Shown here: positions 1,323 to 64,000 of the stretch, one piece after another
How positions within the stretch are numbered: position 1 is the stretch's first letter
How the letters are laid out: each line of letters begins with the position of its first letter
Virus record (IMG/VR): IMGVR_UViG_3300035698_012504
Location: 122,694 to 186,693 of that record
Source of the DNA: a virus
Length of the DNA stretch: 64,000 nt
Direction: 5' to 3' (one strand)
The notes under the pieces: generated by a model
The model's input: the letters and a program-made list of their open reading frames with translations, nothing else
The model's database searches: none
Told to the model about the DNA's origin: nothing
Translations under genes and position numbers: made by a program

Positions 1323-1333
1323 AGAGAATCATA

Positions 1334-19460: not shown

Positions 19461-19620
19461 ACCCCTAGATACTTTAGATCTTAATGATGCATCATCAGAT
19501 GAATTAATTAATGTATTACAGGAGCATGAGGAAGTATTAGAATCTATTGAGAGTAATGAACCTAACGAGGAAGTCAAACTAGAGTTGTTTGACGGTGGAG
19601 AAATCAGAAAGGACGGCTGA
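19396..19620 (+). CDS. hypothetical acidic protein
   Basis: 74-aa ORF in a different frame overlapping the previous ORF by 65 nt. Its end abuts the start of the next gene. Confidence 0.3.
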   Translation: MPTWINLKNSKRKSKSKKSAAEPLDTLDLNDASSDELINVLQEHEEVLESIESNEPNEEVKLELFDGGEIRKDG

Positions 19621-36480: not shown

Positions 36481-37580
36481 TGCCTATAACAAGACTTAAG
36501 AAAGATAAGAGTGTACCCAAAGATGTGGGTGGATCGGGATTGGTTCCTAAAGCTAGCAAGCTTGCCCCGACTCACGCCTATGGAGCGGGTGTAAAGACTT
36601 CGAACGCGTGGGAATCCAAAGATCCAAAAATAATAGATTTCGTTAGTACTAGTAAAACAGTTCCTTGCGCAATTCCAGAACCAATTTATCAAGTATGTAG
36701 AGGATTAGATGCAGAATATCCCAGTGTAGAGTGGAGCATTCTGGTAAAGGGTAGCTGGGATGTTGAAAGAGATATGTTTGTATTGGAAGACGAATACTTT
36801 CTTCCTCAGCAAGAAGTCTCCGGAGCCCATGTGGATTACGAAGAGGACAATCCAGACTTCAATGGAGTGATACACAAACATCCAGGTGGAGTGACAAGTT
36901 TCTCTGCCACAGATGAATCATATATTAACAGGAATTTTATAATAAGCTTATTGTGGGTTAACCACGATTTTCATTATGGTATTGCTAACACTAGATCCAG
37001 AGATATGGGTGCAACAAGAATAAGACTTAAACTTAAACCAATACCGATGCAGGATCATATAGCAGTCCTTCCGGAAAATCATGCAGAGAAAATAAAAGAA
37101 AGATCATATGCTTATAAAAGATCATATGCTTATAGTGGTAGTCAATTTGGTGGGCTAGGAAACTGGCAAGGCAGAGGCAACCACAACGTTCACTCTAGCC
37201 AAGGCGCAGGTATGAGACACCAGGGTACCCAGAACGGCAAGCCAGGATACTGGCAAGGCGGTGTATTCCACCCTACCGAAGGTCATGGCTCGAACGACTC
37301 GTCTTCGGGGATGACCGGGAATAGAAGCGGTTCTGCGTTCGCCGAAGATGCTGACCTCGATCCCGACGAAGACCGCGCAGGCGGTGGGATAGGTGGTTGG
37401 AACCCATACGAAGATGATGACCTTCAATCATTATCAGGCGTCCCCGATGACGACGACGATGATGACGGAAAACCTCTAGGCGCACAATCGTACAACGATA
37501 TGGACGCCGAAGAATGGGAAGCATATATGGAATCTATTGACCACGAGTACGCAAAAATACCAGCGTGGATGTGGAAGTAA
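36480..37580 (+). CDS. JAB/MPN (JAMM) metalloprotease with a long Gly/Gln/Asp-rich low-complexity C-terminal tail
   Basis: Perfect JAMM motif NGVIHKHPGGVTSFSATDE (HxHx7Sx2D) with upstream acidic residues (DVERDMFVLEDE). The tail at 37050-37560 is GC-rich and disordered-looking. Start overlaps the E1 stop (TAATG). Confidence 0.8.
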   Translation: MPITRLKKDKSVPKDVGGSGLVPKASKLAPTHAYGAGVKTSNAWESKDPKIIDFVSTSKTVPCAIPEPIYQVCRGLDAEYPSVEWSILVKGSWDVERDMFVLEDEYFLPQQEVSGAHVDYEEDNPDFNGVIHKHPGGVTSFSATDESYINRNFIISLLWVNHDFHYGIANTRSRDMGATRIRLKLKPIPMQDHIAVLPENHAEKIKERSYAYKRSYAYSGSQFGGLGNWQGRGNHNVHSSQGAGMRHQGTQNGKPGYWQGGVFHPTEGHGSNDSSSGMTGNRSGSAFAEDADLDPDEDRAGGGIGGWNPYEDDDLQSLSGVPDDDDDDDGKPLGAQSYNDMDAEEWEAYMESIDHEYAKIPAWMWK

Positions 37581-39307
37581 TGTGTTTCATTTCAGCTTAT
37601 TGGGCGATTGAATCCGTACCGACTGAGGAGGTCCTTATGGGCCTTCTCAGTTCGGGTCCCGCCCGAGGTATGGATGGGTTTGGGACATGTATAATTAAGC
37701 CCAATGGAAGAGCAAATTCTCAACATAGACGAACCCATCCTAATGTTGTAGATCCTAACTACGAAGTTAAGATGGGAGACAAAGTACGATTAAATAGAAT
37801 GATAGATGATATCCAGAATGTAGTTAGAATAGATAGTAAGAACATTCAAGTAGGAGATATACATCTATCTAATTTCAGAGCCATCCCAGAAACAGAAGCG
37901 GAGTCAAGTGTATTAGAACTACAGCCTATAATGGAAGAAGGATTTCAGCTTGTTCATAATGGCGGAATATCTAATCATATAGTTGAAGAATTAAGAGAGA
38001 AAGTAGAGAATAAATTTGTATCCATTTCTAGTGGAGCTATAGATAGTGAAGCAATTCTATGGTCCTATTATTTACATAGTGGAGACATTAAAAAAGCTGT
38101 AGAATATTTAGTAGGGGGTCTTGCATTTATTTTAGTTGATCAAAAATATCAACACAAATTGTATGCCGTATGTAATCACAACCCATTGTTCTGTGGATAT
38201 GTAGTCGGGCATGGAATGTTCTTCGCGTCTTCAGAAGATGCAATATGGAGAGTCATAAGTAGACTGAGAGGTAAAGATACAACTAGATGTAATACAAAAG
38301 TATGGGAAGATTATTATTGTCAAGAGATACCAGAGAATACAATAGTATCGATAGATACTCAAACTGGTCAACGAGAAGATATAAAATTTACACCTAGATA
38401 TATTACGAATAATTATGATCCATTAACGAAAAAGAAATCGGGAAAAGAAAAGGTTCTTGTTTCCCTTTCAGGTGGATTGGATAGCTCTGCTACTGCTGTG
38501 CTGCTACATCTAGCTGGGTATGATGTGACTGCTGTACACTTTATGTATGGTCATGTTGGAGAACAATCAGAGTTTCAGGCAGCCCGTAGGGTGTGTGAGA
38601 TGAGCGGAATTGGATTACATAATCTTAAAGTAATGCATATACAAAAACCTATGCAAGAGATGGGATTTGGTATGTTATTAGATAAGAATGTACCTGTCAA
38701 CTCAGGAGATCCAAACTATATAAAAACTACAGTAGCATGGGCTCCGTTTAGAAATGGAATATTTGCTTCTTATTTAGGGGCACTTGCAGAGAGATATATT
38801 ACACAAGAAGATTACGATAAAGTATATATTGCTGGAGGATTTCTAAACCTAAGTGAGTCAGGAGTTTATCCAGATAATACTGAGAGATTTGTTAGAAGGT
38901 TTCAAGAATTTGCTGTGCTATCATCTATTATAGGGACTAAAATAGAACCATTATTTTGTTGTAGCAATCTATTAAAGCGGGAAATATGTACCCTGTTAGA
39001 TGGGTTAGATATATTTGAAATGATTGCTACCAATACTATCAGTTGTGATAGACCTAGGATGCATCTAGAAGGGTGTAGCTATAAAGGTTGGCCAGCATGT
39101 GGGTCAGGAATACTTTCTCATTTAGCATTCCTTCAAGCAGGGTTAGAAGACCCAAGAAAATACTACGAACTTGACGATGATCCTGGAGATCTACTTCACG
39201 GAGAAGCAACTCAAATGTATGTTGCTTATCCAGAAGAATTAATTAATAGACTTAATATAAGTGACGAAGGTAAAGAAAGATTACTGAATCGATTAGTAAA
39301 AAAATAG
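37565..39307 (+). CDS. glutamine amidotransferase (class II, Ntn) fused to a QueC-like PP-loop synthetase (Gat-QueC; 7-deazaguanine modification enzyme)
   Basis: N-terminus MCFISAYW...GPARGMDGFG...LVHNGGISNH (AsnB-type MCGI...RGPD...NGEIYN). PP-loop VLVSLSGGLDSSATAVLL. QueC-like FRNGIFASYLGALAERY...SGVYPDNTERF (QueC VPGRNLLF...SGYPDCRPEF). C-terminal Cys cluster SCDRPRMHLEGCSYKGWPACGSG. Start overlaps the JAB gene. Confidence 0.7.
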   Translation: MDVEVMCFISAYWAIESVPTEEVLMGLLSSGPARGMDGFGTCIIKPNGRANSQHRRTHPNVVDPNYEVKMGDKVRLNRMIDDIQNVVRIDSKNIQVGDIHLSNFRAIPETEAESSVLELQPIMEEGFQLVHNGGISNHIVEELREKVENKFVSISSGAIDSEAILWSYYLHSGDIKKAVEYLVGGLAFILVDQKYQHKLYAVCNHNPLFCGYVVGHGMFFASSEDAIWRVISRLRGKDTTRCNTKVWEDYYCQEIPENTIVSIDTQTGQREDIKFTPRYITNNYDPLTKKKSGKEKVLVSLSGGLDSSATAVLLHLAGYDVTAVHFMYGHVGEQSEFQAARRVCEMSGIGLHNLKVMHIQKPMQEMGFGMLLDKNVPVNSGDPNYIKTTVAWAPFRNGIFASYLGALAERYITQEDYDKVYIAGGFLNLSESGVYPDNTERFVRRFQEFAVLSSIIGTKIEPLFCCSNLLKREICTLLDGLDIFEMIATNTISCDRPRMHLEGCSYKGWPACGSGILSHLAFLQAGLEDPRKYYELDDDPGDLLHGEATQMYVAYPEELINRLNISDEGKERLLNRLVKK

Positions 39308-49439: not shown

Positions 49440-50162
49440 ATGGTTAATAAAAACTTACCATTAGTTCTATCTGATTTATTTGAATATGATATCTCTTCAT
49501 GTTATTATAGAATACTTAAAAATATTGGTTGGGACTTAAGCGAGGTTGTCGAAGACGATAAGATAACTAGAAATATTCAATTGGGACTGATGCAGCGGGA
49601 TAATGTAAAGTTATCCCGTTTTCTTCAGGACTCAACTAAATCCATAATAGATTTCTACCTAAAGGAAAATAATATATCTCCCAATGAGGTAGCAGTGAGA
49701 CAAAAAGATGGGGTGATTCTAACTAAAAATCTAGAAAGAATTAATCTAACATTACCAATAGATTTCAGAGGAGTTGTATCTAAATTAATAATAAGTAGAA
49801 CATACAATGAATGGCTTATCCTTTACATGGATGGACGAGTAGATGTAAAAGGAGTATCAAATAAGCCAGTAGACATCAGCTTCTATAATCTATTTAGAAA
49901 CTTAGACTTCACTAATAAGAAAAATTTAGTGAAGGGGATAGAAATAATAAGAAGAAAAATACTAAGCAGTGAGAACGTAGAATGGTTTGCATGTAAATCA
50001 GAAGACGAATACTCTATTCCTGTAAAAGGAGAAGGTGAAATAAAACTTAGAAAGTCTAGCCTACATTCAATAGATCAAAACGATATAGATAAAGATTTGT
50101 TATGGGATAAATACGTATGGCCATTTGTCCAGTCTCTAGTTTCTGTGTATATAATAGGATAA
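49440..50162 (+). CDS. hypothetical protein
   Basis: 240-aa ORF. Confidence 0.4.
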   Translation: MVNKNLPLVLSDLFEYDISSCYYRILKNIGWDLSEVVEDDKITRNIQLGLMQRDNVKLSRFLQDSTKSIIDFYLKENNISPNEVAVRQKDGVILTKNLERINLTLPIDFRGVVSKLIISRTYNEWLILYMDGRVDVKGVSNKPVDISFYNLFRNLDFTNKKNLVKGIEIIRRKILSSENVEWFACKSEDEYSIPVKGEGEIKLRKSSLHSIDQNDIDKDLLWDKYVWPFVQSLVSVYIIG

Positions 50163-50165
50163 AAT

Positions 50166-50615
50166 ATGAAACATCTAGAAAAGATCGGTAGATACTTGTG
50201 CGGAGCACAAGAAGAAAGTAAACAGGTAGAAGAATTAAATGACAAAATTGAATCATTGATGAAACTACATGAGGAATTAGCAACTGAATTTGCAATGTAT
50301 AAAATTGAATGTGCTAAAATTAGACTTAGTGGTGCTGAACAACAATTAGGATTAATGGATTTAATAGATGTGCTATTAAAGAAACGTAAAAGAACTATAT
50401 TCGATAATGAATTAGTTGAGGAATTAGATCATGGTCTTATATCCGATGAGGAAATGAGTATTATAGATAGATTAATCGAAGAAGATAATTCTCAAGAAGT
50501 GTATAGCGACCAGGAGTTTGGAGAGGGGCTTCCACCTGATTATGTTGATGACTGGGATGATCCTGAAGTAATTGAGTCGCTACAAAAAGAAGCTGAGGGC
50601 AGAGACGATGAGTAA
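50166..50615 (+). CDS. hypothetical acidic coiled-coil protein
   Basis: 149 aa with a D/E-rich C-terminus. Confidence 0.4.
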   Translation: MKHLEKIGRYLCGAQEESKQVEELNDKIESLMKLHEELATEFAMYKIECAKIRLSGAEQQLGLMDLIDVLLKKRKRTIFDNELVEELDHGLISDEEMSIIDRLIEEDNSQEVYSDQEFGEGLPPDYVDDWDDPEVIESLQKEAEGRDDE

Positions 50616-50865
50616 ACCAAAAGTATATCCAATAACTAATTTAAAAGGCGTAGAAGTAGTAGTTAATAATCATGGTGAAAATTTTGAAAAAGGTTTGAAA
50701 AGATTTAAAAGAATGTGTAACAATGAAGGAGTCTTACAGGACCTGAGAGAAAAAGAAAGCTTTGAGAAACCAAGCGATAAGCGTAGAAGGAGAAGGCGAG
50801 CAGCAATTAAACGCTGTATGGATGCCGAACTCGACGAGTTGGAGAAAATGGATCACCATGGCTAG
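50608..50865 (+). CDS. rpsU: ribosomal protein bS21 homolog (phage-encoded)
   Basis: VVVNNHGENFEKGLKRFKRMCNNEGVLQDLREKESFEKPSDKRRRRRRAAIKRC matches the bS21 consensus (V.V..nE.f.kALRRFKR.cek.GvL.e.rrR.fyEKPs.kRkR...a..kR). Start set at internal ATG 50608 behind GAGGG. The ORF track begins 36 nt upstream. Confidence 0.8.
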   Translation: MSKPKVYPITNLKGVEVVVNNHGENFEKGLKRFKRMCNNEGVLQDLREKESFEKPSDKRRRRRRAAIKRCMDAELDELEKMDHHG

Positions 50866-51451
50866 ATCCCTTATAATAGGACCAGGGAAACGTTGGGTAC
50901 ACTGGTGTAACCACGCATACACTTACAAAGAAAGAGATGGAATTGATATAGTAGATAAAGATTCAATTGATGTAACTAGTAACATAGCATTCTCTGGAGA
51001 TAATAGACCAACTGACATCAGATTGTATGCTGAAAGTATACGAGATTATTCTGAGCGTCCTGTTCCAGAAGGGACATATGATTACATAGTTGCTGAGAGA
51101 GTACTAGAACATTTGGATTATATGGCAGTGATGTATACCCTGTTTGGATTATATGGTATGTCTGCACCAAGAGCAGAGTTAGAAATAGTTGTTCCAGACT
51201 TTGAAAAAGTATTTGATTCCCTTCGCCGGTTGAATCCGTTTGACGATCAAGCGGATAAATTCCAACGAGATTTTGTTAGGGTAGATACAGAAATATTTAA
51301 CGATGAGGAAGATCCTCATCAATCAGCATGGACACCTTTACTTGCTAGATATTATATAGAATGTGAAGGGCTTTGGACAGTTGAAGACATGGAACATATT
51401 ACAATAGAAGGTAGGGATTGGTATTTAAAGATCCTTGCAATAAGGAAATAG
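50858..51451 (+). CDS. hypothetical protein (weak class-I methyltransferase-like DYIVAERVLEHLDY)
   Basis: Start ATG 50858 overlaps the bS21 stop (ATGGCTAG). Only a weak post-motif-II-like segment is visible. Confidence 0.4.
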   Translation: MARSLIIGPGKRWVHWCNHAYTYKERDGIDIVDKDSIDVTSNIAFSGDNRPTDIRLYAESIRDYSERPVPEGTYDYIVAERVLEHLDYMAVMYTLFGLYGMSAPRAELEIVVPDFEKVFDSLRRLNPFDDQADKFQRDFVRVDTEIFNDEEDPHQSAWTPLLARYYIECEGLWTVEDMEHITIEGRDWYLKILAIRK

Positions 51452-51454
51452 ATA

Positions 51455-51769
51455 ATGGCTGATGAAACTAGTTTTGATGATGGTAAATTAAAAGTACTTA
51501 AAGAATTTAGAGTTCCCGATCCGTGGGATGGAGCAGAATCAGGAGCACTGATAAGAGTATATACCTACGACGGAAGTAAACCAAAAGTAAATATACTACG
51601 ATACTATAAAAAATCCAAAGGGTTTGATGAAGGTGATAACACCGAAGTCGTATCGAATAAAGGTAATCTCCCAATGGAGAATGTACAGAAGGTTGGAGAA
51701 CTCCTTGTCAGTATAGGCAAGGAACTAAATAGGGTAGACACCCAAGAGGTACCAAATGGCATCAGGTAG
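51455..51769 (+). CDS. hypothetical protein
   Basis: 104-aa ORF. Confidence 0.35.
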   Translation: MADETSFDDGKLKVLKEFRVPDPWDGAESGALIRVYTYDGSKPKVNILRYYKKSKGFDEGDNTEVVSNKGNLPMENVQKVGELLVSIGKELNRVDTQEVPNGIR

Positions 51770-52997
51770 CAAAATAGACGACGAACTATCAAGAACAAAT
51801 ATGCCCATTCAACGAGCAATTATGTATGCATTGGATAGTGTTGAAATGAGGATGCAGGGAATCGAATGTGCGATTCCGTATCTAGTAGGTACTCCCGGTG
51901 GCGGGAAGACTCAAATGACCAATAAATTTGCTCTTGAACGCGGATACAATTTCATCTCAGCTTCTCCTGCCCTTGAACGAGTAGAGAAGTTCGGTGGAAT
52001 TCCCGATCTAGTTCATATGGAAAATGGAGATCTTCATACCGTATGGTCAGTACCTCAATTGATCTGTGAAATAAGAAAAGTTTCAGAGAATGGAAAGCCC
52101 ACGGTAGTTCTTCTTGATGACTGGCATCTCTGCCCAGAAGAGATTCAGCAAATTGGTTTTGAATTGTTTACATATCATTCACTCAATGGTCATAAGATTC
52201 CTGAAAATGCTCAGTTCATCTTAGCTGGTAATGAAACCAGTGCTGCAGGAGCAAGAGTTCAGCTTTCAGCCATAAGAAATAGATGTGTGAATTACAGAGT
52301 GTTCAGTGATCCAGAATATTGGATTGATAATTATGCAGCACCAAAAGGAATTCATGATATTGGAATAAGCTTCTTCAGTTCAAAGGATCATTTCACATTG
52401 TTCCATGAAGAAGAGGCCACTTCACATCAATTTGGTTCTCCGAGATCTTGGACCCATGCGTTCATTCAGTTAACTTGGGCTGAAAATAATGAGAAGTACC
52501 ACGCAGTAGATCCTAGAACCAAGAAGACTGGGCTTCCAATTGCCGACCTTCAAGCTATCTTAGAGGGATCAGTAAGTAAGAAAGCCGCTGCAAAATTCAT
52601 AGAGTATTACAGAATATACCGAGAAGTAAATGCTACAAAAATATTCGACACTGGTAAATATGTCATTCCAGAAAAGAACATTAATAGATTTGCATTCGCT
52701 TCTGCCATATGTGCTGAGTTCTATCATCGGTTCACTTCTGGTAAAAGAAAGAAAGAAGCTGCTCACCTATTTGTTAGTATTATGAATGACCTTCAGACTC
52801 ACTCAAGAGAGATTGCAGTCAAAACATTAAGAACAATAGCAAAGAAACCAAAAGTTGAAGAGTTCGATAAAATAAAAGGAGCTAAGGCTTACTCTGGTGC
52901 AGAGATCCTTACAGAGATCATCAAAGCAGGCATCCTTGATCTTAAGCTGGTTGATGACTTGAGACAAACAGTAGCTCTATTAAACGCAGATAAATAG
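51756..52997 (+). CDS. MoxR-like AAA+ ATPase
   Basis: Walker A LVGTPGGGKTQMTNKFA. Walker B-like VVLLDDWHLC. Overall single-AAA MoxR/CbbQ-like layout. Confidence 0.75.
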   Translation: MASGSKIDDELSRTNMPIQRAIMYALDSVEMRMQGIECAIPYLVGTPGGGKTQMTNKFALERGYNFISASPALERVEKFGGIPDLVHMENGDLHTVWSVPQLICEIRKVSENGKPTVVLLDDWHLCPEEIQQIGFELFTYHSLNGHKIPENAQFILAGNETSAAGARVQLSAIRNRCVNYRVFSDPEYWIDNYAAPKGIHDIGISFFSSKDHFTLFHEEEATSHQFGSPRSWTHAFIQLTWAENNEKYHAVDPRTKKTGLPIADLQAILEGSVSKKAAAKFIEYYRIYREVNATKIFDTGKYVIPEKNINRFAFASAICAEFYHRFTSGKRKKEAAHLFVSIMNDLQTHSREIAVKTLRTIAKKPKVEEFDKIKGAKAYSGAEILTEIIKAGILDLKLVDDLRQTVALLNADK

Positions 52998-53011
52998 ATG
53001 GGACCAATTCT

Positions 53012-54472
53012 ATGTCAGAAAAAACTCCAGCCCCCGAGGTTCCCAAGGAGGCTACAGAGGAGATACCTCCATCATTATCAAGATTTGGAGAGGAATTAAA
53101 AGACGCTCTTGTCATTCTTCTCAACAAACAAGACACGGAATTCTTTGGCACTCTAGCCTATGGAATTCCGTTTCATGTTTTAGATAAGGAACAATATAAA
53201 TCAAATAGTGGTGGAATACCATCGGCTGGATATACTGATCACGAATGTATAGTATTTCTTGCAGATAATGAAACAACTAAATCAGAAATTATATTCATTA
53301 CTATCCATGAAATAATTCATATCATTTGTTCACATGTTAGGCGGCGTGGAAACAGGCACCCTATGATGTGGAACCTTGCAATCGATCACGTCACGAATAG
53401 ATTTGTAAGGGAGATAGCCAATAGAAAAAATTATATTAAAGAACCCCATGGTGGATGTATATTCTTTGAGGATATCCACAGAGAGTTTCCAGATATAATT
53501 CCTGAAGAACTATATGAAATAATGTGCAAGAAAGCAAGTATGAATTCTAAAGAGGGAGAAGACTCAGATAAAATAACAAATGTTTATGGTACTGGAGATT
53601 GTTCTGATCCGACATATGAAATCACCTGGGAAGACTTAAAAGACAATGAAGGAAATAGTACTGGTAAAATTAAAGTTACTGTCAAAAATATAGAGACTGG
53701 TGACGAACAAACAATGGTATATGATTCCAAAATGGAAGATGAAGAGTATCGGAAAAAGGCAGAAGAAGCCTTTGGAGATATAGCACAAGATGCTCGTACC
53801 CTATGGTACGCTACTCCTACCGAAGCAAGAGGATCTCTTTCTGGATCAATGATAGAATTTCTAGACACTTTATTTAAAGTGGAGATTCCTTGGGACGATG
53901 TACTTGAAGATGCTGTATTGTATAATGTTCAAAACGCCCAGAGCAGATCTTGGGTAGAGAAGAACTTTTACATTCGGCATCCTCGTGTCCCAGGTAAAAG
54001 AAATAAACGAAATCCTTTCTATCTTATAGCAACAGTAGACTGTTCAGGATCTATCAGTAAGAATGATCTGAAGAGATTTGCTGGAGTATTAATAGGAAGT
54101 GCTCAGTATTATAAAGCGATTCATATGATTGTACATGACCACGCAATACAAGATGAGTTAATGATTACTAGTAATCTTACAGAAGCTGGTGTCGCAGAGC
54201 ATGTCAAATCATTCAGAGGTAGAGGTGGCACTAGTCACAGAGAACCATTTGATAGAATTCAAAATATAGTTCAGGAAGAACGGGTAAGTACAATACTATT
54301 TCTGACAGATTATTATTCTGATGTACAACATATACATACAGATTACAGATGGTTCCATGATTACGAAACCATATGGGTTCTAAACAGCAAAGAAGAGGTA
54401 TTCCTAGATGAGTGCAGAACAAAGTCAATCCACCTCGACGCTCACGGTCGAGGCAAAAGACGAGACTTCTAA
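53012..54472 (+). CDS. VWA-domain protein with an N-terminal HExxH metallopeptidase-like motif (MoxR partner)
   Basis: TIHEIIHIICSH (HExxH). C-terminal MIDAS IATVDCSGSISKND (DxSGS). Immediately downstream of the MoxR-like ATPase. Confidence 0.7.
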   Translation: MSEKTPAPEVPKEATEEIPPSLSRFGEELKDALVILLNKQDTEFFGTLAYGIPFHVLDKEQYKSNSGGIPSAGYTDHECIVFLADNETTKSEIIFITIHEIIHIICSHVRRRGNRHPMMWNLAIDHVTNRFVREIANRKNYIKEPHGGCIFFEDIHREFPDIIPEELYEIMCKKASMNSKEGEDSDKITNVYGTGDCSDPTYEITWEDLKDNEGNSTGKIKVTVKNIETGDEQTMVYDSKMEDEEYRKKAEEAFGDIAQDARTLWYATPTEARGSLSGSMIEFLDTLFKVEIPWDDVLEDAVLYNVQNAQSRSWVEKNFYIRHPRVPGKRNKRNPFYLIATVDCSGSISKNDLKRFAGVLIGSAQYYKAIHMIVHDHAIQDELMITSNLTEAGVAEHVKSFRGRGGTSHREPFDRIQNIVQEERVSTILFLTDYYSDVQHIHTDYRWFHDYETIWVLNSKEEVFLDECRTKSIHLDAHGRGKRRDF

Positions 54473-54869
54473 AGAAGATAGTAATGTCAATTGGGTTAAA
54501 CATCAGTATCACTATTTCGTAGGCATTATTAAAGACAAAACCGGTAACAAACTGGACTTCTATTTCAGATTTGAATCAGATGAATTGAGAGCCATGAGCG
54601 CAGAAGCAATGCTTGAAGAGCTTTCTCATAATGATGGAGACATTGACTCCTCATCCAATGAGAAGCTCGGAGAGAGCTTTGAAACAATGTGGCTAGTGAT
54701 GGCATTGAAAACAAGAATAGAAGAGAATCTCGTGGCTTGTCTGTTCCATAGTGACAAGCTAAGAAACCGAGATGAAATGATTAAATTAATAGAAGAAGAA
54801 TTATCAGATGAACAAGTTGAAGCAGCTACAGTAATGAATGGAACAGATAGCGACTTCACAAATTATTAG
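54408..54869 (+). CDS. hypothetical acidic protein
   Basis: 153-aa ORF overlapping the previous gene by 65 nt. Start uncertain. Confidence 0.35.
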   Translation: MSAEQSQSTSTLTVEAKDETSKEDSNVNWVKHQYHYFVGIIKDKTGNKLDFYFRFESDELRAMSAEAMLEELSHNDGDIDSSSNEKLGESFETMWLVMALKTRIEENLVACLFHSDKLRNRDEMIKLIEEELSDEQVEAATVMNGTDSDFTNY

Positions 54870-54888
54870 AATATAAACGAAAGGTCAA

Positions 54889-55116
54889 ATGGGTAAGAAT
54901 AAAAAATCTAAGAATCAAATAGCAAGTTTTTTCTCGGAGTTGTTAAAGACTACAAAAATTAGTTACGAGCTCGATGCAGATAAAAAGCACTCACTGTCCG
55001 TGAACATCGATGACGGATCAGACATGTGTGCAGACGTTGAACTGGAGCAGAGTCTAGAAAAGTCTGGCTCTGCTCCAGTTATTAAAATTAATTTAGGTAA
55101 ACAAGATAATAAATAA
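54889..55116 (+). CDS. hypothetical small protein
   Basis: 75-aa ORF. Confidence 0.3.
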   Translation: MGKNKKSKNQIASFFSELLKTTKISYELDADKKHSLSVNIDDGSDMCADVELEQSLEKSGSAPVIKINLGKQDNK

Positions 55117-55120
55117 TACT

Positions 55121-55145
55121 ATACATATTAAATAGTGAGAACACA
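55121..55145 (+). promoter_or_regulatory. copy 3 of conserved promoter-like motif (ATACATATTAAATAGTGAGAACACA)
   Basis: Same core as 8693, 32507 and 56918. Followed by SD AAAGGAG and a GC-rich small ORF. Confidence 0.45.
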
Positions 55146-55515
55146 TTTTCAGAAAGGAGTATTGTTGCCAACCATCCAGGACGAAAGGATAAACCGTTTA
55201 AGAAATTCCAAAAATACGCAGGTATCTGAGCGTGTTCTCAGAGAAAATGCGGCTTTGCGTAAGCAGGTTGAGGGTCTCCAGCAGGGCTCGACAGTTCCAG
55301 CTCGAAGTGTTTGTGGCGTTTTAGTAAGAAAAGGTGACATCCAAACGGTAGTTGCCAATTCTATGCACGTATTCCTTTCTTCATTGATTGGTAATGAATT
55401 CGGCGGTGTTGGTGAACTAGTCGCTGCCGGTGTCGCGGTGGCAACTGGTACATTGATTGAAGAAATCTTCCCAGAGGTTCAGTCTGAGGAAGACCTTGAT
55501 GCTGATGAGGAATAA
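55135..55515 (+). CDS. small GC-rich protein (start uncertain; possibly TTG 55162 behind AAAGGAG)
   Basis: The ORF track starts at a GTG inside the promoter motif. The coding part is GC-rich relative to the window and ends at a canonical terminator. Confidence 0.4.
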   Translation: MRTHFQKGVLLPTIQDERINRLRNSKNTQVSERVLRENAALRKQVEGLQQGSTVPARSVCGVLVRKGDIQTVVANSMHVFLSSLIGNEFGGVGELVAAGVAVATGTLIEEIFPEVQSEEDLDADEE

Positions 55516-55520
55516 AAAAG

Positions 55521-55552
55521 AGGGGGTGCACTGCAACACCCTTTCTTTTTTT
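55521..55552 (+). terminator. rho-independent terminator
   Basis: AGGGGGTG-CACTGCAA-CACCCTTT stem-loop followed by CTTTCTTTTTTT. Confidence 0.65.
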
Positions 55553-55611
55553 GGTTGTATTTATTCTGAGGACAAATTTTATATAAACCAATTAAACTAT
55601 AGGGGTTAAAT

Positions 55612-56871
55612 ATGTCAATTCCAAGAAACGAGAGACCATTTTATGTTATTAATTTTAATGTAGGCGATATGGACCTATCATTAAATGTAACATCGGTTAA
55701 ATTAGCTAGTTCAATAGCGTCTGTTTATCCTGCTGTAGTTATTGAATTTGAAATAGATGCGGCAGAGATGGTGTTAGAGAAAATATATGGACAAGAATCT
55801 ATTACATTATCAATTAAATTAACTACTGAAGATCAAGATGAGAAAGGTATGTTTGAATTTAATTTAATTAATGTTGATATTAAATCTACAATAGAACCTA
55901 AGGGACAGAACCAAGAATCTGATCATCAAGAATCTAATCATGTTAAGCTGACATGTGTAATAAAAGAAGCATTTAAAGCAATGAATACAACAATAAATAG
56001 ACTTATAGATGAGTCAAAAGAGTTCACTCCCATTGAAGCATTGCAGGATATAATAGATAACTGTACAGATATTTCTCCAAATATAATAGATAAAAATAAA
56101 AATACAGAAAAGATTTATCAAATAATTATACCTCCTATGACACTATCTAAGAGTATAAAATATCTAGATGAATACTTTGGAATATTTAATGGACCAATGA
56201 ATTCATTTTGTACAGTATTAGATGGAGACATAGTATTAACTATTGCTGATCTTAGTCATATGATAAAGGATGAAGAAAAATATAAAATCCATTTGTTAAC
56301 TGAGGGTGGAGATGAATCAAAAATATATGAGGAATCTGATCCTACTAATAATGTTTTTTATGTTTATAATCCAATGGTATCTAAATACGAAGGTAATAAA
56401 CAGGTAATGAAGAACGCATATAAACAAAGATATGTATCTCTACCTATGGATAAATTATTTCATAATATAGATTTTACTGTGGATGATGTGTATAATGACA
56501 ATTCTGTACAGTCCGCGTCCGGTGGAGACTTCTATTATAATGACGATGTAAAAGAAAGATATCAAGTACACACAAATCATACTGGATATGAAACAACTGA
56601 GACATTTGCAAGAGCAGATCTAGCAAGAAGTATATCTAATTTAACATACCTTACATTTGAATTGCATAGAAATATGGATATTAGTGAACTAATTAAGATA
56701 GGGGTTCCTATATTAATAGAACCTCATGTAGCAGAGTACGATGAATATAAAGGAAAATATATAGTTAGCTCCTCATACGCAGTATTCGAACGATCTTCTG
56801 GAACAATGTATGATTGTCATGTGAGGAATAAATGCTTCAGGGGTAATGTTCTAGAGACAGGTGGGGGATAG
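55612..56871 (+). CDS. hypothetical protein (419 aa, possibly structural)
   Basis: Long ORF with no motif recognised. Confidence 0.45.
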   Translation: MSIPRNERPFYVINFNVGDMDLSLNVTSVKLASSIASVYPAVVIEFEIDAAEMVLEKIYGQESITLSIKLTTEDQDEKGMFEFNLINVDIKSTIEPKGQNQESDHQESNHVKLTCVIKEAFKAMNTTINRLIDESKEFTPIEALQDIIDNCTDISPNIIDKNKNTEKIYQIIIPPMTLSKSIKYLDEYFGIFNGPMNSFCTVLDGDIVLTIADLSHMIKDEEKYKIHLLTEGGDESKIYEESDPTNNVFYVYNPMVSKYEGNKQVMKNAYKQRYVSLPMDKLFHNIDFTVDDVYNDNSVQSASGGDFYYNDDVKERYQVHTNHTGYETTETFARADLARSISNLTYLTFELHRNMDISELIKIGVPILIEPHVAEYDEYKGKYIVSSSYAVFERSSGTMYDCHVRNKCFRGNVLETGGG

Positions 56872-56917
56872 AAGAAGATTTTAAGTGGTAAAATAAAGAG
56901 TGGGTAACTTTTGAAAT

Positions 56918-56946
56918 GATTATATATATTAAATAGTGACAGCACA
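56918..56946 (+). promoter_or_regulatory. copy 4 of conserved promoter-like motif (GATTATATATATTAAATAGTGACAGCACA)
   Basis: Same core. The 3' end forms the hairpin AGTGACA-GCACACGT-TGTCACT. Followed by SD GAAAGGAGAG and a GC-rich small gene. Confidence 0.45.
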
Positions 56947-56985
56947 CGTTGTCACTATCATTTCAAGCACCCCGAAAGGAGAGCC

Positions 56986-57219
56986 ATGAGTGGTAGTATT
57001 TGGAATGCAATTCGGGAAGCGGGATTAGATCCTGCAGACGTCGATGACAATCTGCTTGGAGCTTTGAAGGCTCAGAAGAAGATGCGAAAACTTCTTCGAG
57101 GCAAAGCCCTCCAGAAGACATCTGGCCCTAAAGTACCTCTTTCCATAAGAGCTGCTAAGAGTAAGCGGAACAAATCACGACAGAGAAAGGAGAGACGGAA
57201 AAATAGAAGTTCTAAGTAG
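56986..57219 (+). CDS. small basic protein (Arg/Lys-rich C-terminus)
   Basis: 77 aa, ending ...AKSKRNKSRQRKERRKNRSSK. GC content higher than the surrounding sequence. Confidence 0.45.
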   Translation: MSGSIWNAIREAGLDPADVDDNLLGALKAQKKMRKLLRGKALQKTSGPKVPLSIRAAKSKRNKSRQRKERRKNRSSK

Positions 57220-57229
57220 TATCCGATCC

Positions 57230-57650
57230 GGAAACACTTCTATAACTTCAAGTTGCCCTTTAGAAAATGGATCTCCTAAAGGCGAGAGTTCACATGGATG
57301 TGCAACTGAGGGATGTTTAAGAGGCATTCCAGGAAGGGGTTCTGCATGAAAGCAGACAAGTGTTCGGCAAGATTTCGATGTGGTGGTCGTATTGTGGTAC
57401 GAGATGAAGAGTCATCTTCCATGACAGATGGAAAGCTCCCTGCCGAGGGGCTTGCATGGGATGGTATTATATCATTCAAGAAGATGCTACTCGTACTGAA
57501 AGATACTCTTCAAATAGCCCAAAGGGCTTTAATCATATCAATACCCTTATCTGTGTGCTGGCCCGATGAGGGTCAGTACCGTATATTTTTTATTTCTTTT
57601 TTTATTTAATTTGATAATATAAAGAAAAATGAGGACAAACTATAAACGAT
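57230..57650 (+). other. GC-rich, hairpin-dense non-coding island upstream of the terminase gene (candidate structured RNA or packaging site)
   Basis: About 420 nt at roughly 47% GC, against about 33% for the window. No convincing ORF. Multiple short inverted repeats (TCTGC-ATGAAA-GCAGA; GAAGAGTCATCTTC). Confidence 0.3.
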
Positions 57651-57666
57651 TGGAGCAGAGGAGATT

Positions 57667-59415
57667 ATGGCAGTTGTAACAACTAACTCAGTAGAAAAAG
57701 CTAATTTAATAATTAAATATAAAAAGGATCCTATTAAATTTATGGAAGAGTGTATTAAAATACCTGTTCCAGGTGGCTCCCAATTCATTAAATTGTATGA
57801 ACCACAGAAAAGAATTGTAAAGGATTTTTTAATAAATCATGATTTAATCCTATTAAAAAGCAGACAGATTGGTATGAGTACTATCTGTCAAGCTATGATA
57901 GCATATCTAAGTATTTTCTTTGACAACTGTATAATTGGATTAGTATCTAGAGATAATGCTGAGGCGTCTGACTTTTGTAGAAAAGTAAAGGACATGTTAT
58001 TCCATCTTCCTGATTGGATTAAACCAGAATATGCTAATGATCAGATACAATATTTTGTATTAACAAACGGTTCAGCACTATATGCAGCAACTATACCTAC
58101 CACTAACCCAGCTTCTACTCTTCGTGGTAAAGCAATTACTATGTTAGTTGTAGATGAGGCAGCCTTCTTAAGAAACATAGACGATGCATGGACAGCTCTT
58201 TCTCAGTCAGTAAATAGATCGCAGCAGGATGCAAAGGCAGCAGGAATTCCATATGGAAACATAGTTATTTCTACTCCAAATAAAACAGAGGGTATAGGTA
58301 AGTGGTATTTTAATAACTATCAAAAGGCAAAGAGAAAAGAAAATCAATTTATTCCTCATGAGATCCACTGGTCTGAGATTCCACTGTTTAAAAATGATCC
58401 ATTTTGGTATGTTCGACAATGCAATCTATTAAATAATGATCAAAGAAAGATTGCTCAAGAGTTAGAACTCAAATTCATTGGTACAGATAGTACATTGTTT
58501 GATGCAGATACTCAGGAAGCTTTACAGGAAGGAGACAGAACTCCATTAAAAGAAATGAAATTAAAATGGGGTGGAGAACTTTTTATATTTAGTGAAAGAC
58601 AACATGGTAAATTTTATATCATAGGAGTGGACACTGCTTCCTCTGCGGGTGATGACTTCTCTGGTATCCAGGTGATGGACTTTGAAACATGTGAACAGAT
58701 TATGGAGTATAAAGGAAAGCTAGAGCCTAAAATGTTTTCCGAAGTAGTTAAGATGGTAGCCAGAATGGTACCACATAATATAATAGTTGTAGAAAATACA
58801 GGTGGGTTTGGATTAACTGTAATAAATGAATTACAATTCGATACACAAACTAAGTTTAACATCTTCGGTGAGTTTAGAGGTAAGAATAAACCCAATCATA
58901 GTAGCAGTAGAAGTCATAAGAAAGAACAAAATAAACAATTCGTATATGGATTAAGTACTAATGGTAAATCTAGACCATTGATTTTAGATTCTTTATTTGA
59001 TTATGTAACTACAGATACAAATACAATTAAGTCTGAGAGATTAGCCATGGAGTTATTAGGACTCACAAATAAAAATGATAAGATTCAAGCTGACTTAGGA
59101 TTCAATGATGACTTAGCATTATCATGGGGCTTCTGTTGTTACGTAAGAAAATACTGTTCAGTACAATTAGGAAACACATCCACTGTAACCCAGAGCGAAC
59201 TAGAGACTATGCCATTAGAGAATACAATAGACAATATAATAAAAATGAATAATACGAATGGATCATTGTATTTAGATTCATTAGAACAAGAACCTAAACA
59301 ATTTAAAAAGTCATTAGAGAGATACATTAAAGAAAATGTAGGAACCAAACTTACTGGTCATGTAAATGTAATGGACCTTTGGAGACAAGATAATGAGCAA
59401 GCCGGTAAATATTAA
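57667..59415 (+). CDS. terL: terminase large subunit
   Basis: LLKSRQIGMST (degenerate terminase Walker A SRQxGK(S/T)). MLVVDEAAFL (Walker B). Nuclease-domain acidic motifs IIGVDTASSAGDDFSGIQVMD. Confidence 0.7.
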   Translation: MAVVTTNSVEKANLIIKYKKDPIKFMEECIKIPVPGGSQFIKLYEPQKRIVKDFLINHDLILLKSRQIGMSTICQAMIAYLSIFFDNCIIGLVSRDNAEASDFCRKVKDMLFHLPDWIKPEYANDQIQYFVLTNGSALYAATIPTTNPASTLRGKAITMLVVDEAAFLRNIDDAWTALSQSVNRSQQDAKAAGIPYGNIVISTPNKTEGIGKWYFNNYQKAKRKENQFIPHEIHWSEIPLFKNDPFWYVRQCNLLNNDQRKIAQELELKFIGTDSTLFDADTQEALQEGDRTPLKEMKLKWGGELFIFSERQHGKFYIIGVDTASSAGDDFSGIQVMDFETCEQIMEYKGKLEPKMFSEVVKMVARMVPHNIIVVENTGGFGLTVINELQFDTQTKFNIFGEFRGKNKPNHSSSRSHKKEQNKQFVYGLSTNGKSRPLILDSLFDYVTTDTNTIKSERLAMELLGLTNKNDKIQADLGFNDDLALSWGFCCYVRKYCSVQLGNTSTVTQSELETMPLENTIDNIIKMNNTNGSLYLDSLEQEPKQFKKSLERYIKENVGTKLTGHVNVMDLWRQDNEQAGKY

Positions 59416-60274
59416 TGAATTTTTAGAACTCTCTCCTGTTATGTTAAAACCATATGGGATAGTTGGGAGTCAGATGATACACTCCAACGAAAAGATTGGA
59501 GAGAATACTAAAGATTGGTGCAGCAAATCAAAAATCACAAAAGATATAAATGCTAAAATATCAGAGGGAATAGATAAGAAAAGAATCATACCTGGATACT
59601 TAGACTCAAGTACAGTTTCTTTTTTATTTAAAAAACTTCTATATAAAAATAGAGGTACTACTACTCTAGGGTTTTATGCATCCAATACTAAGAACATTGC
59701 ATTAGTATTAGATAAGAATGTTACATTTTTTGGTAAGGCTATGAGAGAACTACCACCAATATTAGTACATGAGCTCGTTCACTTTGTTGCTAACATAGAC
59801 ACCAAATTATTTTTAAAGTATTCATTGGGTCCTTATATTGCACCATTCTATAAAGAATTTTTTAGATCTATGCTGCCCAATGAATATAAAAAAATAGATC
59901 AGAAAAGACTTAGAGAGTTTGCAATAGAATTAACGCTTATATCTGATGGTATGGAAAGTGTATTTAGTTTAAAAAACCACGCAGCTATATTGAATAGTTT
60001 TTTAACTACATTTTTAAGTAAGGATAGAGCGGATGAAGTAACAACAAATATGATAGGATCGTATGCATATTTTGTAATGGGAAAATCTAAGTATCGTATA
60101 TGTGCCAAAAGAACATTGCCTCACTATTTTAAAGCGTATGATTCGCTCGGTGTGGATGGGAGAATAACCACTCCATGTCAAGAAGCTATTTATCCATCAG
60201 AAATAGTAGCAATATGTAATGAATTTAAACCTTCAAGATTTACAATAACTATGATTAATAATCTTAAACTGTAG
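59393..60274 (+). CDS. hypothetical protein
   Basis: 293-aa ORF overlapping the terminase stop. Confidence 0.4.
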   Translation: MSKPVNINEFLELSPVMLKPYGIVGSQMIHSNEKIGENTKDWCSKSKITKDINAKISEGIDKKRIIPGYLDSSTVSFLFKKLLYKNRGTTTLGFYASNTKNIALVLDKNVTFFGKAMRELPPILVHELVHFVANIDTKLFLKYSLGPYIAPFYKEFFRSMLPNEYKKIDQKRLREFAIELTLISDGMESVFSLKNHAAILNSFLTTFLSKDRADEVTTNMIGSYAYFVMGKSKYRICAKRTLPHYFKAYDSLGVDGRITTPCQEAIYPSEIVAICNEFKPSRFTITMINNLKL

Positions 60275-60282
60275 GATAAGAT

Positions 60283-63200
60283 ATGTCAGAAGAAGATTTC
60301 AAAAAAGAAAAACAAGAACTAGCAAAAAGTCTCGGTGGGCTAAGTAAGACCATTACTCAAAGCTCTTCAGAAGTCGAACGTGCATCTAGAAAAGCTGCTA
60401 TAACTATGAATAAAGGAATTATTCAAGGCACCCAGCAGATGGAAGAGATACGTAAGATGGCTAAGGATAGAATTACTAAGTCCATGATTAAATCTATGGA
60501 CACTGAAGTAAGTAAAGTAAAAAATGCAAACAAAGAGGGATTGAAAGTTATCACTGAGGCTACAGATTCTCTCTTCACTTCAGTAGATAGTATGACTACT
60601 AATTTTGAAACAATAAATGATTCATCTGAAAAGATGGCTAAAGCATCTTCAGATATTGGAGACTCTGTTTCTGAATTTGGAGACATGACTGCAGAGCACT
60701 CTGATAGATTAGACTATGTGATGAAAGGATTTGAATCATCTTCCCTGAAGTTGGCGAAGGGTGTCTTTGGTGCTACTAAAGCTATTAGTTTTTTAAGTGT
60801 TAAGTATGGTGCGAAGACAGGTGTGGCTGCTACAAAGAAGGCTGCACGTATAGCCACTGCTCCAATCAGAGCTCCTCTGAGAGTCATGGGTGAAGCTAGA
60901 GATAAGGTGCTTGATCCCGCTAGACAAGAAACAGATAATATAGTAGATAATTTTAAAGGTCTCCTGGGCGCTGGACTGATAGGTGGAAAGGGAGGTCCTG
61001 TAGCTGCGGATGCAAATGCAATGGTAAGAACTGGGTTCAGTTCTATATTTGGAAAGAAAGGAGATGAAGGTGAAGGTGGCTCTGGAACAATATCAAAAAT
61101 ACTCGGGGCATCTAAAGATATTACCTTAGCTGGTTTTGGTGGTCTACAGAATACGATGGGTGAGATGGTTGGGTGGATAAAAAATATACCTGGTGCTAAG
61201 CAAGGAAGAGATGGCAATGAATGGGCCAAAGATTTAAAAAGAGATGCAGCAAAAGGATCATTTAGATTAGCATCTAGTGGGGAAATAGTAGGACCAGAAG
61301 ATGATTATGAAATAAAATCTGATAATAGGGGTGCAAATATAATCCTCTCTACAAAAGAAAAAGATATTGATGGTGGTAGTGAAATGGATGATCCAGTCGT
61401 AAAAAGACTGGAAGATATAAAACAAGTAGCTGTTGCCCACGCCGCGCATGAAGGAGTTCAACTCAGAAGAATGCCTGGAGTTAGACAAGGTAAGAGTAGA
61501 ATACTATGGACTCAGAATGAAAGAGAATCGAAAGATGACAAGGGACCGAAATCCCCAGAGATGCCTGGGTTCCTTGGAGAACAGTTCTCTAATATATTTG
61601 GTATTAAATCTGTTATTGGTTATGCTCTTCCATTCTTTGGTATGGGTTATAGATCTGAATTACCTAACCCCAGATCTATAGGAGTTATTCCAGCAATATA
61701 TAAAGTACTATCTCTTATATATGTGCATGCTAGATTTGCATCAGATGAAATTAATGGTTTAGTATATCAACAGTCTAGATTAATACAAGAAGGATTTGGA
61801 ATAGAAGGTAATCTAAAAAGACCTAAGTCTAGATCTATTGGTCAATGGCTTGGTTCTGCTATTAAAAGTAGAATAGCTCAAGAGTTAATTAAACAAAAAC
61901 AGGATCCAGACTCTCAACTTAATAAAATAATGGGACAATTTATTAAGAGTGAAGAGTATCAAAAGATGGCTGGAGACTTAGTAGATTCATATATTGAACA
62001 TGGACGAGAAGCCGACTTCAAAATTGCTGAAGGGGGTCAAGCAGGTATACTTATAGGCATAAGGGATATACTTCAAAAGCAATTAGAGTTCTTTTTAAAT
62101 ATAAAAAGGTTTGCTGATGGTGGTACTGTTGGCGAACACGGTGGAGAGTTAATCATTGCTGGAGAGAAAGGTAAAGAAAAGATATCATCTGCTCAGGAAA
62201 CTGCACAAGAAGAAAAATCAAATGTTGCACAGGCTAAAGATAAGTCTAAAATAAGAGATGAAGGTCTAGCTAAAAACAAGGAAGGCGAAGAAGGAGGCGG
62301 TGGAGCTAAAGGAATCTTTGGAAAGATAGGAGCATTCTTTGGAGCCTTAGTTAATTTAAAAAGTATTAAGGAATCATTACTAGGTATGTGGGAAAGTATT
62401 AAGAAGATCCCATCTCTCCTATCTAATGCTATATTCGGGAAAATAGATGGAGAAGGAAATACACAAGGCGGAATAATAAGTTTACTTATAGGAATTAAAG
62501 ATGGGATAGTGGCAATGGCTACGGGTTTAAAAGAAGGACTAGGTTCTCTTTGGGATGATACTGAATGGAAAGAAGGTAAGTTCAAAGGGTTCCAAGAGAA
62601 GCAGGGATTTATTGCTAGATTCTTTGACTTTGTTGTAAGCGCCATATCTTCTGGTCATAGTAAATTAATGGAAACAATTAATAAAGAATTGGATCCTGCT
62701 AATAAATCTATAGGTGAGAGACTCATATTTGCTTATCAGAAGTTAGTACCACAAGCAGTAACCTCTGCTCTGTTCGGAGATACAGATGCAGAAGGAAAAC
62801 CCACTGGTATATTTGGAATAATGAAAGGCATATTTGATGCTGGTTTAAAAGCTGCTAAGGTATTTGGTGAAGCAGGTACTACATTTTTTAATGCTGTCAA
62901 AAATTTTGGAGATTCTTTATCTAAGTATAAAGATTCTGTAAAGGAAATATGGAACGATAAAGAAGCCGGAGGTTTTAAGAAACTTATGGCTCCGCTCACA
63001 GAGATACCAGTTCTTTTAAAGGACTTCATAGATGGTACCATTAAAGTTGGATCTGGATTAATGGAAATAATGAATTCCCAGATGGAACTATATTATGTCC
63101 CAGCTAAAATGAAAAGAATAATGAAGGACATGAGAGTTAAGCTAGCCAAAAATATTTTGTCTGATCCATTTCAACATATATATGAAGCAATAGAAGAAAG

Positions 63201-64000
63201 AATGTTTGACTGGGCACTGTCTTCTTTCCACTCACTTGAGGGTGTGATCGGAGCAATGTTTGGATCAAAAGATGGAGCTGCTACTGCTGGTGTAGCGTAT
63301 AGAGAAGCTGTATGGCAGAAGGCTGCTAAGAAAGAGAAGGAAGGAAAAGCTTACATTCAGAGATTCGGCCTTCCAAATCTTAAAGGAATATGGGCAGGAC
63401 TTGGAAACATTGCTTGGGCTGGTGCGAAACCATATTTCGATTTTGTAGCTAGACTAAAAGATAATATTAAAGAGCTGTGGGCTGGTGTAGAATTCTATGC
63501 TAGAGGTAAATCCTCTGGAGGAAATCTAAGCATAGTATCATTTGTTAAAAGTGTAATGGGAGATGTATTAGATACTTGGACTAATATTATAAATGTTTCT
63601 CATGATATTCATGATAGATTTTCAGATGTCTGGGGTGTATCTGTTATGGGTAGAGATGAAGCTACTGTGTCTGCGATGAATCAAAAACCGATTAAGCCCC
63701 AGAAACCAATTGAGTCCCATGCTAAAGGTGGGGTGATAGGAGAAGGTCAACCAGCCGGTGCTCCTGTGGATATGGTTGGACATGCAGGAGAAGGAGTTCT
63801 ATCTTTAGATGGTCAAAACAATAAAGAAATGTTTTCACCTGTTACAACTATATTAGAACATATGCAGGCAGAACTAGAAGTACATACTGGTTTACTTGGA
63901 CGGTTGATTGAAGAAACAACTAATATTTATTCTGGTAAGGGTCGTAAGAGTCATGGAATCATAGGTGCGATAGTAAGTATTCCTCTCAAAGTTACAGCTG
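60283..64000 (+). CDS. very large Gly/Ala/Lys-rich protein, 3'-partial (tape-measure-like or virion-internal protein)
   Basis: ATG 60283 (frame 1) stays open to the window end. I checked codon by codon over 61441-62220 and inferred the rest from the absence of competing + ORFs and the presence of only low-complexity antisense ORFs. Coiled-coil and glycine-rich segments are typical of tape measure proteins. It is missing from the ORF track because it has no stop in the window. Confidence 0.55.
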   Translation, partial: MSEEDFKKEKQELAKSLGGLSKTITQSSSEVERASRKAAITMNKGIIQGTQQMEEIRKMAKDRITKSMIKSMDTEVSKVKNANKEGLKVITEATDSLFTSVDSMTTNFETINDSSEKMAKASSDIGDSVSEFGDMTAEHSDRLDYVMKGFESSSLKLAKGVFGATKAISFLSVKYGAKTGVAATKKAARIATAPIRAPLRVMGEARDKVLDPARQETDNIVDNFKGLLGAGLIGGKGGPVAADANAMVRTGFSSIFGKKGDEGEGGSGTISKILGASKDITLAGFGGLQNTMGEMVGWIKNIPGAKQGRDGNEWAKDLKRDAAKGSFRLASSGEIVGPEDDYEIKSDNRGANIILSTKEKDIDGGSEMDDPVVKRLEDIKQVAVAHAAHEGVQLRRMPGVRQGKSRILWTQNERESKDDKGPKSPEMPGFLGEQFSNIFGIKSVIGYALPFFGMGYRSELPNPRSIGVIPAIYKVLSLIYVHARFASDEINGLVYQQSRLIQEGFGIEGNLKRPKSRSIGQWLGSAIKSRIAQELIKQKQDPDSQLNKIMGQFIKSEEYQKMAGDLVDSYIEHGREADFKIAEGGQAGILIGIRDILQKQLEFFLNIKRFADGGTVGEHGGELIIAGEKGKEKISSAQETAQEEKSNVAQAKDKSKIRDEGLAKNKEGEEGGGGAKGIFGKIGAFFGALVNLKSIKESLLGMWESIKKIPSLLSNAIFGKIDGEGNTQGGIISLLIGIKDGIVAMATGLKEGLGSLWDDTEWKEGKFKGFQEKQGFIARFFDFVVSAISSGHSKLMETINKELDPANKSIGERLIFAYQKLVPQAVTSALFGDTDAEGKPTGIFGIMKGIFDAGLKAAKVFGEAGTTFFNAVKNFGDSLSKYKDSVKEIWNDKEAGGFKKLMAPLTEIPVLLKDFIDGTIKVGSGLMEIMNSQMELYYVPAKMKRIMKDMRVKLAKNILSDPFQHIYEAIEERMFDWALSSFHSLEGVIGAMFGSKDGAATAGVAYREAVWQKAAKKEKEGKAYIQRFGLPNLKGIWAGLGNIAWAGAKPYFDFVARLKDNIKELWAGVEFYARGKSSGGNLSIVSFVKSVMGDVLDTWTNIINVSHDIHDRFSDVWGVSVMGRDEATVSAMNQKPIKPQKPIESHAKGGVIGEGQPAGAPVDMVGHAGEGVLSLDGQNNKEMFSPVTTILEHMQAELEVHTGLLGRLIEETTNIYSGKGRKSHGIIGAIVSIPLKVTA

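Follow-up and report, generated by a model that had tools for sequence, protein, structure and literature searches.

A divergent bS21 homologue in a variable gene slot of a large uncultured phage lineage with a multisubunit RNA polymerase

A short gene lying in the DNA of an uncultured virus raises two questions: whether it truly encodes ribosomal protein bS21 as a gene of the phage itself and, if so, what its product would do to the ribosomes of the infected cell. The gene, here called S21, is found in a stretch of 64,000 nucleotides (positions 122,694 to 186,693 of IMG/VR record IMGVR_UViG_3300035698_012504) that was analysed as a whole and is termed the window; coordinates without a prefix refer to it.

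The S21 gene and its product

S21 occupies positions 50608-50865 of the plus strand, exactly where the initial annotation had placed it, and runs as an intact reading frame from an ATG start to a TAG stop. Its product of 85 aa (MSKPKVYPITNLKGVEVVVNNHGENFEKGLKRFKRMCNNEGVLQDLREKESFEKPSDKRRRRRRAAIKRCMDAELDELEKMDHHG) is identical to that given by public gene calls. The longest frame that can be delimited mechanically begins at a TTG at 50572, within the upstream gene, but no other start codon is present ahead of codon 30, so that 50608 is the sensible start.

The profile search proposed in the initial annotation returned a score of 65 bits (E=4.8e-18) against Pfam PF01165 Ribosomal_S21, for which the curated cut-off is 27 bits, with residues 21-69 aligned to profile positions 5-53 of 55. 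The NCBIfam equivalog model TIGR00030 S21p was matched with 56.4 bits (curated cut-off 28.95 bits; residues 16-69 on positions 2-54 of 58), as was PHROG 21469 'ribosomal protein S21' (E=9.8e-16). The claim that the sequence matches bS21 along its whole length thus holds with respect to the family model, which is covered almost end to end, whereas residues 1-15 and 72-85 of the frame fall outside. All four core motifs that had been named (RFKR, GVL, EKPS and KRRR) were recovered, in the forms LKRFKR, EGVL, FEKPS and DKRRRRRR. When S21 was aligned with 11 homologues, E53, K54, P55 and R61 were invariant and G41 nearly so. Among solved structures in the PDB, 36 distinct bS21 or bS21m chains were matched, the best with E=9e-11; the residue-by-residue alignments to these chains agree with the conserved core positions, and S21 departs from the family at none of them. 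An AlphaFold2 model computed from the single sequence places helices at residues 26-38, 40-49 and 58-82, as expected, with low confidence (mean pLDDT 53). That S21 is a genuine phage-encoded bS21 homologue is in our view practically certain. The PDB matches of proteobacterial type scored best (~41-45 bits, versus 29 bits and E=7.4e-6 for Flavobacterium johnsoniae 7JIL), a preference that may be read as a weak hint about the host and as a hint only.

The protein is nevertheless divergent. A word-index search retrieved identical copies only, and among the best 150 matches drawn from 1.84 billion representatives the next-best homologues are ~50% identical over the core. No cellular bS21 more than ~51% identical was found among 15 billion proteins. 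A tblastn search of a phage collection gave no match at 1e-5; at E<=1 it gave only weak matches to the core, many of them in mislabelled bacterial fragments. Scans of IMG/VR with S21 and with the neighbouring ATPase described below also returned no match. Many of the records in the phage collection that matched our queries for RNA polymerase (RNAP) or S21 consist of fragments lacking annotation or of bacterial contigs with cellular rpoB or rpsU, such as Listeria phage LM 4-x, Staphylococcus phage SA 1298 Kay, Salmonella assemblies and Acinetobacter phage MD-2021a. Counts of S21 genes based on this collection would be too high.

Both ends of S21 extend beyond the canonical core (residues 16-71) and lie outside the family profile. 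Residues 1-15 (MSKPKVYPITNLKGV) form a basic N-terminal extension of 13-15 residues with a net charge of +3, which contains three lysines and one tyrosine (MSKPKVYPITNLKG); extensions of similar length are seen in the alignment in the architecture-matched homologues P0022, P0041 and P0043. At the other end, residues 72-85 (DAELDELEKMDHHG) form an acidic tail following the AAIKRC segment, beyond which most bS21s, unlike S21, carry basic residues. The protein as a whole is basic (pI 9.6), with a net charge of +8 in the core and of -5 in the last 14 residues, which is atypical for bS21. Among the best 150 S21 matches from the 1.84 billion representatives, a distal tail of 8 residues or more is present in 86; these tails carry a median net charge of +2.5, only 6 of them reach -2 or below, and that of S21 is the most negative. 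The counterpart of this tail in E. coli bS21 is a basic helix next to the Shine-Dalgarno (SD)/anti-SD duplex, and the protein terminates there in an RLY motif that contacts the head (PMC7550191). This RLY/KLY motif, which contacts h37/A1167 and is found in gamma- and betaproteobacterial bS21 and in some phage homologues (PMC7550191), is absent from the C-terminus of S21, which reads ...DELEKMDHHG.

The phage genome around S21

The description of S21 as phage-encoded, already made in the initial annotation, is borne out by its surroundings. The window (~34% G+C) is 92% coding on the plus strand, and in this one-strand array S21 overlaps both of its neighbours, the stop of the upstream gene by 8 nt (ATGAGTAA) and the start of the downstream gene by another 8 nt (ATGGCTAG). 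Overlapping starts and stops are frequent across the whole window, and the coupling around S21 is not special. The G+C content of S21 (36.8%), its GC3 (31%) and its CAI-like index are all within the range of the neighbouring genes. The array further includes a T4-type large terminase, TerL (57667-59415, plus strand; Pfam Terminase_6N, 45.9 bits), a multisubunit RNAP with a beta' gene (42271-45069) and two beta-like genes (3101-7144, 1347 aa, and 45681-48698), and genes for topoisomerase II subunits, SbcC, SbcD, a helicase and homing endonucleases. Neither tRNAs nor structured RNAs were detected in the window with ARAGORN and Rfam. The nearest cultured matches of the RNAP, in Cobetia phage Carin-5, YerA41 and AR9/PBS1, share 24-33% identity, those of the terminase share less than 30%, and megablast of positions 40000-60000 against the phage collection gave no match at the DNA level; the lineage of the window is uncultured and branches deeply. 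Four contigs, three of them of 50-200 kb, encode an S21 protein identical to that of the window, and the longest contig on record for it measures 152,492 bp. We conclude that S21 is carried by a large uncultured tailed phage, contamination or chimerism being very unlikely because of the 8-nt overlaps, the phage-like composition and the occurrence on several contigs.

Between positions 44000 and 58000, sigma-70-like promoter matches are fewer (42) than in shuffled sequences (60.4 +/- 6.6), as would be expected of a phage that uses its own RNAP for transcription. The promoter scan revealed no operon boundary near S21, and the only strong terminator-like hairpins on the plus strand of this region are located at 55514-55551 and 57555-57579.

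Immediately upstream of S21 lies a gene for a protein of 149 aa (50166-50615, plus strand), the acidic flanking protein of the initial annotation. It has a pI of 4.3, an N-terminal half that looks helical or coiled-coil and an acidic C-terminal half made up of 38% Asp+Glu, and it had no homologue in Pfam, PHROG, the phage database or the related loci described below. The downstream gene (50858-51451, plus strand) encodes a protein of 197 aa that had fairly been described as methyltransferase-like: it gives sub-threshold matches to Methyltransf_23 and Methyltransf_12, and its GxG...VD...RVLEH pattern is conserved in three homologues. Its AlphaFold2 model is of low confidence (pLDDT 63, poor over residues 10-56); nearly all of the 50 PDB matches listed for it by Foldseek are annotated as SAM-dependent methyltransferases (E ~1e-5, TM ~0.4), and the model thus points to a probable class I SAM-methyltransferase fold.

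These genes turn out to lie in a slot of variable content. Homologues of the ATPase gene at 51756-52997 (plus strand; phrog_1297, weak AAA matches), which lies two genes downstream, were used to fetch eight metagenomic loci (L002-L009); the ATPases share 36-47% identity with that of the window and are found on contigs of up to 307 kb. All eight loci have the order RNAP beta'–beta–240-aa protein–variable slot–ATPase–DUF2201/VWA protein–...–419-aa protein–TerL in common, and the core proteins are 40-56% identical. By synteny with these loci, the slot extends in the window from 50166 to 51769 (plus strand), between the conserved 240-aa protein (49440-50162, plus strand) on its left and the ATPase on its right, and contains the acidic 149-aa protein, S21, the 197-aa methyltransferase-like protein and an ORF of 104 aa. 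The ATPase and the following DUF2201_N/VWA-like protein (together 51756-54472), a pair present in all eight relatives, resemble a MoxR-VWA pair.

In L002, the slot also contains an S21 gene, which encodes 68 aa (L002:9004-9210) and directly follows the homologue of the 240-aa protein; it is succeeded by a gene for an HHH-domain protein. The slots of L003, L004, L008 and L009 are without S21, which a tblastn search of the loci confirmed. A dedicated link of the methyltransferase-like gene to S21 was considered and is unsupported: the slot of L009 contains a homologue of the former in the absence of the latter, so there is no sign of obligate pairing. A common origin of the two S21 genes was likewise considered and found unsupported. 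The S21 proteins of the window and of L002 are 40% identical and match with 42.8 bits, below every one of the best 150 database representatives, which all score at least 46 bits. Because the two proteins are not each other's nearest relatives, a single ancestral acquisition is unsupported; judged from the sequences, independent capture into a plastic slot appears at least as likely, although the ~55 alignable residues are too few to settle the matter. The slot may be a hotspot with repeated capture of S21. The five nearest S21 proteins that could be placed come from four distinct contexts (L011-L015), all of them low-GC (27-31%), phage-like, co-directional arrays unrelated to the window. In three of these contexts, which represent a different phage lineage, an S21 of 79-85 aa with an N-terminal extension is encoded immediately upstream of Cpn10/GroES (L011:2062-2597, L012:2398-2932 and L014:584-1121).

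Several other genes of the window and its relatives were recorded in the course of this analysis. In a protein of 877 aa (19620-22253), a Methyltransf_25 domain (residues 287-382) is joined to a PNKP adenylyltransferase/ligase domain (200 bits); the protein resembles a fusion enzyme of the Hen1/Pnkp type for RNA repair and might serve against host nucleases that attack tRNA or rRNA. NADAR proteins undo guanine ADP-ribosylation, and the NADAR-domain protein encoded at 22314-22802 (80 bits) may counter DarT-type defence. A QueD-like PTPS (14891-15328) and a glutamine-amidotransferase-QueC fusion (37565-39307) are present in the window, and GTP cyclohydrolase I adjoins RNAP beta in two relatives (L008:7112-7849 and L009:6841-7563); together these genes suggest 7-deazaguanine modification of DNA, or of tRNA, in the lineage. 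Directly upstream of the beta-like gene at 3101-7144, the part of the window with the lowest G+C (78-3079, 27.7%) carries a LAGLIDADG-like ORF and a 581-aa HNH homing endonuclease (PHROG 3339, E=1e-145). At the opposite end (60300-64000), the orientation changes, with minus-strand ORFs of at least 100 aa at 60714-61229, 62193-62645 and 62736-63041, and the GC skew is the highest in the window (0.26); the ORF at 62193-62645 has no match in Pfam.

Possible action of S21 on the ribosome

To our knowledge, what bS21 does for a phage has never been demonstrated during infection. The protein is loosely bound to the 30S subunit. It is also late-assembling, exchangeable and required for initiation on natural mRNAs, and a viral bS21 was incorporated into E. 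coli 70S ribosomes (PMC6375957). Steering of translation initiation toward phage mRNAs, the role put forward in the initial annotation, is the usual hypothesis in the literature, and it is the one that we infer for S21.

The translation signals of the window bear on this question. An SD-like GAGGG (50595-50599, plus strand), located within the final part of the upstream gene, precedes the S21 ATG by 8 nt. An SD core, defined as GGAG, GAGG or AGGA located 3-12 nt upstream of the ATG, precedes 42 of the 53 genes of the window that start with ATG (79%), as compared to 9.8% of random positions, and the commonest upstream pentamers are GGAGA and AGGAG. Therefore, the host of this phage reads SD sequences.

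We consider it reasonably probable, and no stronger than that, that S21 is incorporated into the 30S subunit and modulates initiation. The protein would be made in the cytoplasm during infection and would bind the 30S platform beside the 3' end of 16S rRNA, as host bS21 does, thereby supplementing or replacing the latter. Such a replacement would keep SD-dependent initiation on phage mRNAs with strong AGGAG-type SDs, or bias initiation toward them. The divergent termini would be expected to face the mRNA and the SD duplex, not the binding surface, and to tune initiation for the phage; the basic N-terminal extension and the acidic C-terminal segment would be the likeliest source of any selectivity. 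The second S21 in the same slot of L002 may point to retention or re-acquisition of such a gene in the lineage.

The same acidic tail could be read in the opposite sense, with S21 taking the bS21 site as a dominant-negative protein whose tail disturbs SD/anti-SD pairing, so that host translation would be depressed generally. The tail is indeed the most extreme among the best 150 matches. Furthermore, in the only functional test found in the literature, ribosomes carrying the bS21 of Pelagibacter phage HTVC008M had ~5% activity in vitro (PMC6375957), a value that fits inhibition as well as specialisation. However, this value came from a heterologous pairing, and a phage whose own genes rely on strong SDs would itself suffer if SD-dependent initiation were impaired in general. 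We therefore regard a general shut-off as unlikely.

A role away from the ribosome, in which S21, as a small basic RNA-binding protein, would have been recruited to RNA of the phage or of the host, or to a different ribonucleoprotein, is rather doubtful. There is a precedent, since a partnership of bS21 with OLE RNA outside the ribosome is reported in the available part of one study (PMC12054373), and the termini of S21 diverge from those of cellular bS21. Against this, the entire ribosome-binding core is conserved at the level of the family equivalog, and Rfam detected no structured RNA in the window.

More speculative than incorporation with modulated initiation is an elaboration of it, in which the acidic segment, standing in place of the basic helix on the SD side, would make S21 a specificity-switching bS21 for an SD-using host, acting with its translationally coupled acidic coiled-coil and methyltransferase-like neighbours as a small ribosome-remodelling module. 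We hold this to be a long shot; if it were true, the unrelated S21 genes found in the same slot of two phages would represent repeated selection for it. Finally, the idea that S21 is not a phage gene but host contamination, a chimeric assembly or a recent functionless passenger is highly improbable: although public phage collections do include contaminating bacterial rpsU, and several of the matched 'phage' records are bacterial fragments, S21 overlaps both of its phage neighbours, its base composition is phage-like, the arrangement is repeated on several independent contigs, cellular bS21 is at most ~51% identical among 15 billion proteins and the nearest S21 proteins sit in phage-like, low-GC contexts.

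S21 among known viral bS21 proteins

The initial annotation had called virus-encoded S21 still unusual, which is overstated. No other ribosomal protein is encoded by viruses as often as bS21, which has been recorded in 1,310 viral genomes or contigs (PMC6375957); 900 published phage genomes have been analysed for its context (PMC9723584), and the protein also occurs in jumbo phages (PMC7162821, PMC11242549). S21 is thus a divergent addition to an already well-established group.

With the virus-encoded bS21 proteins exemplified by Pelagibacter phage HTVC008M (Mizuno et al. 2019, PMC6375957), S21 has in common that its carrier is a tailed phage of large size (>130 kb) and apparently lytic, that the core is conserved and that the protein presumably takes turns with host bS21 on the 30S platform. 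It differs in its acidic tail and its neighbourhood, and the two proteins are ~35% identical (tblastn E=0.2). The rpS21 proteins of huge phages likewise come from large phages with an expanded set of genes related to nucleic acids and translation (Al-Shayeb et al. 2020, PMC7162821; Watson et al. 2020, PMC7550191), and a basic/aromatic N-terminal extension like that of S21 has already been described in them (PMC7162821); some phage homologues share with gamma- and betaproteobacterial bS21 the RLY/KLY-like motif that S21 lacks (PMC7550191).

The S21 clades of Bacteroidetes phages, in which the anti-SD is sequestered and the S21 gene belongs to the capsid module (Chen et al. 2022, PMC9723584), resemble the present case in having a C-terminal region unlike that of cellular bS21, and TerL is found in the window ~10 genes, or 6.8 kb, downstream of S21. 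[quoted passage not shown] These phages also lack the use of SDs, in contrast to the 42 of 53 genes with an SD core in the window, and the SD-using phage genes therefore set our case apart from the Bacteroidetes-phage clades.

In the available part of a report on the bS21 paralogues of Francisella (PMC9578407), swapping the bS21 variant alters which mRNAs are translated, and S21 would work likewise; the Francisella paralogues are cellular genes whereas S21 is viral. The phages with a multisubunit RNAP (AR9/PBS1, YerA41, Carin-5 and the phiKZ group) have beta and beta'-like RNAP subunits in common with the window. The RNAP gene region of Carin-5 contains no S21, and tblastn against the phage collection gave no S21 match in any of these phages.

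The boundary that separates viruses from cells becomes less sharp when viruses encode ribosomal proteins, of which bS21 is the most frequent. The current picture of viral bS21 is unchanged by S21, whose distinguishing features are minor: an acidic tail, an SD-using setting and a place in the variable slot of a phage lineage with a multisubunit RNAP. It provides a data point beyond the best-studied cases from Bacteroidetes and SAR11, and since its tail is acidic at the very place that in cellular bS21 is turned to the SD helix, it would be a reasonable choice for studies of selectivity.
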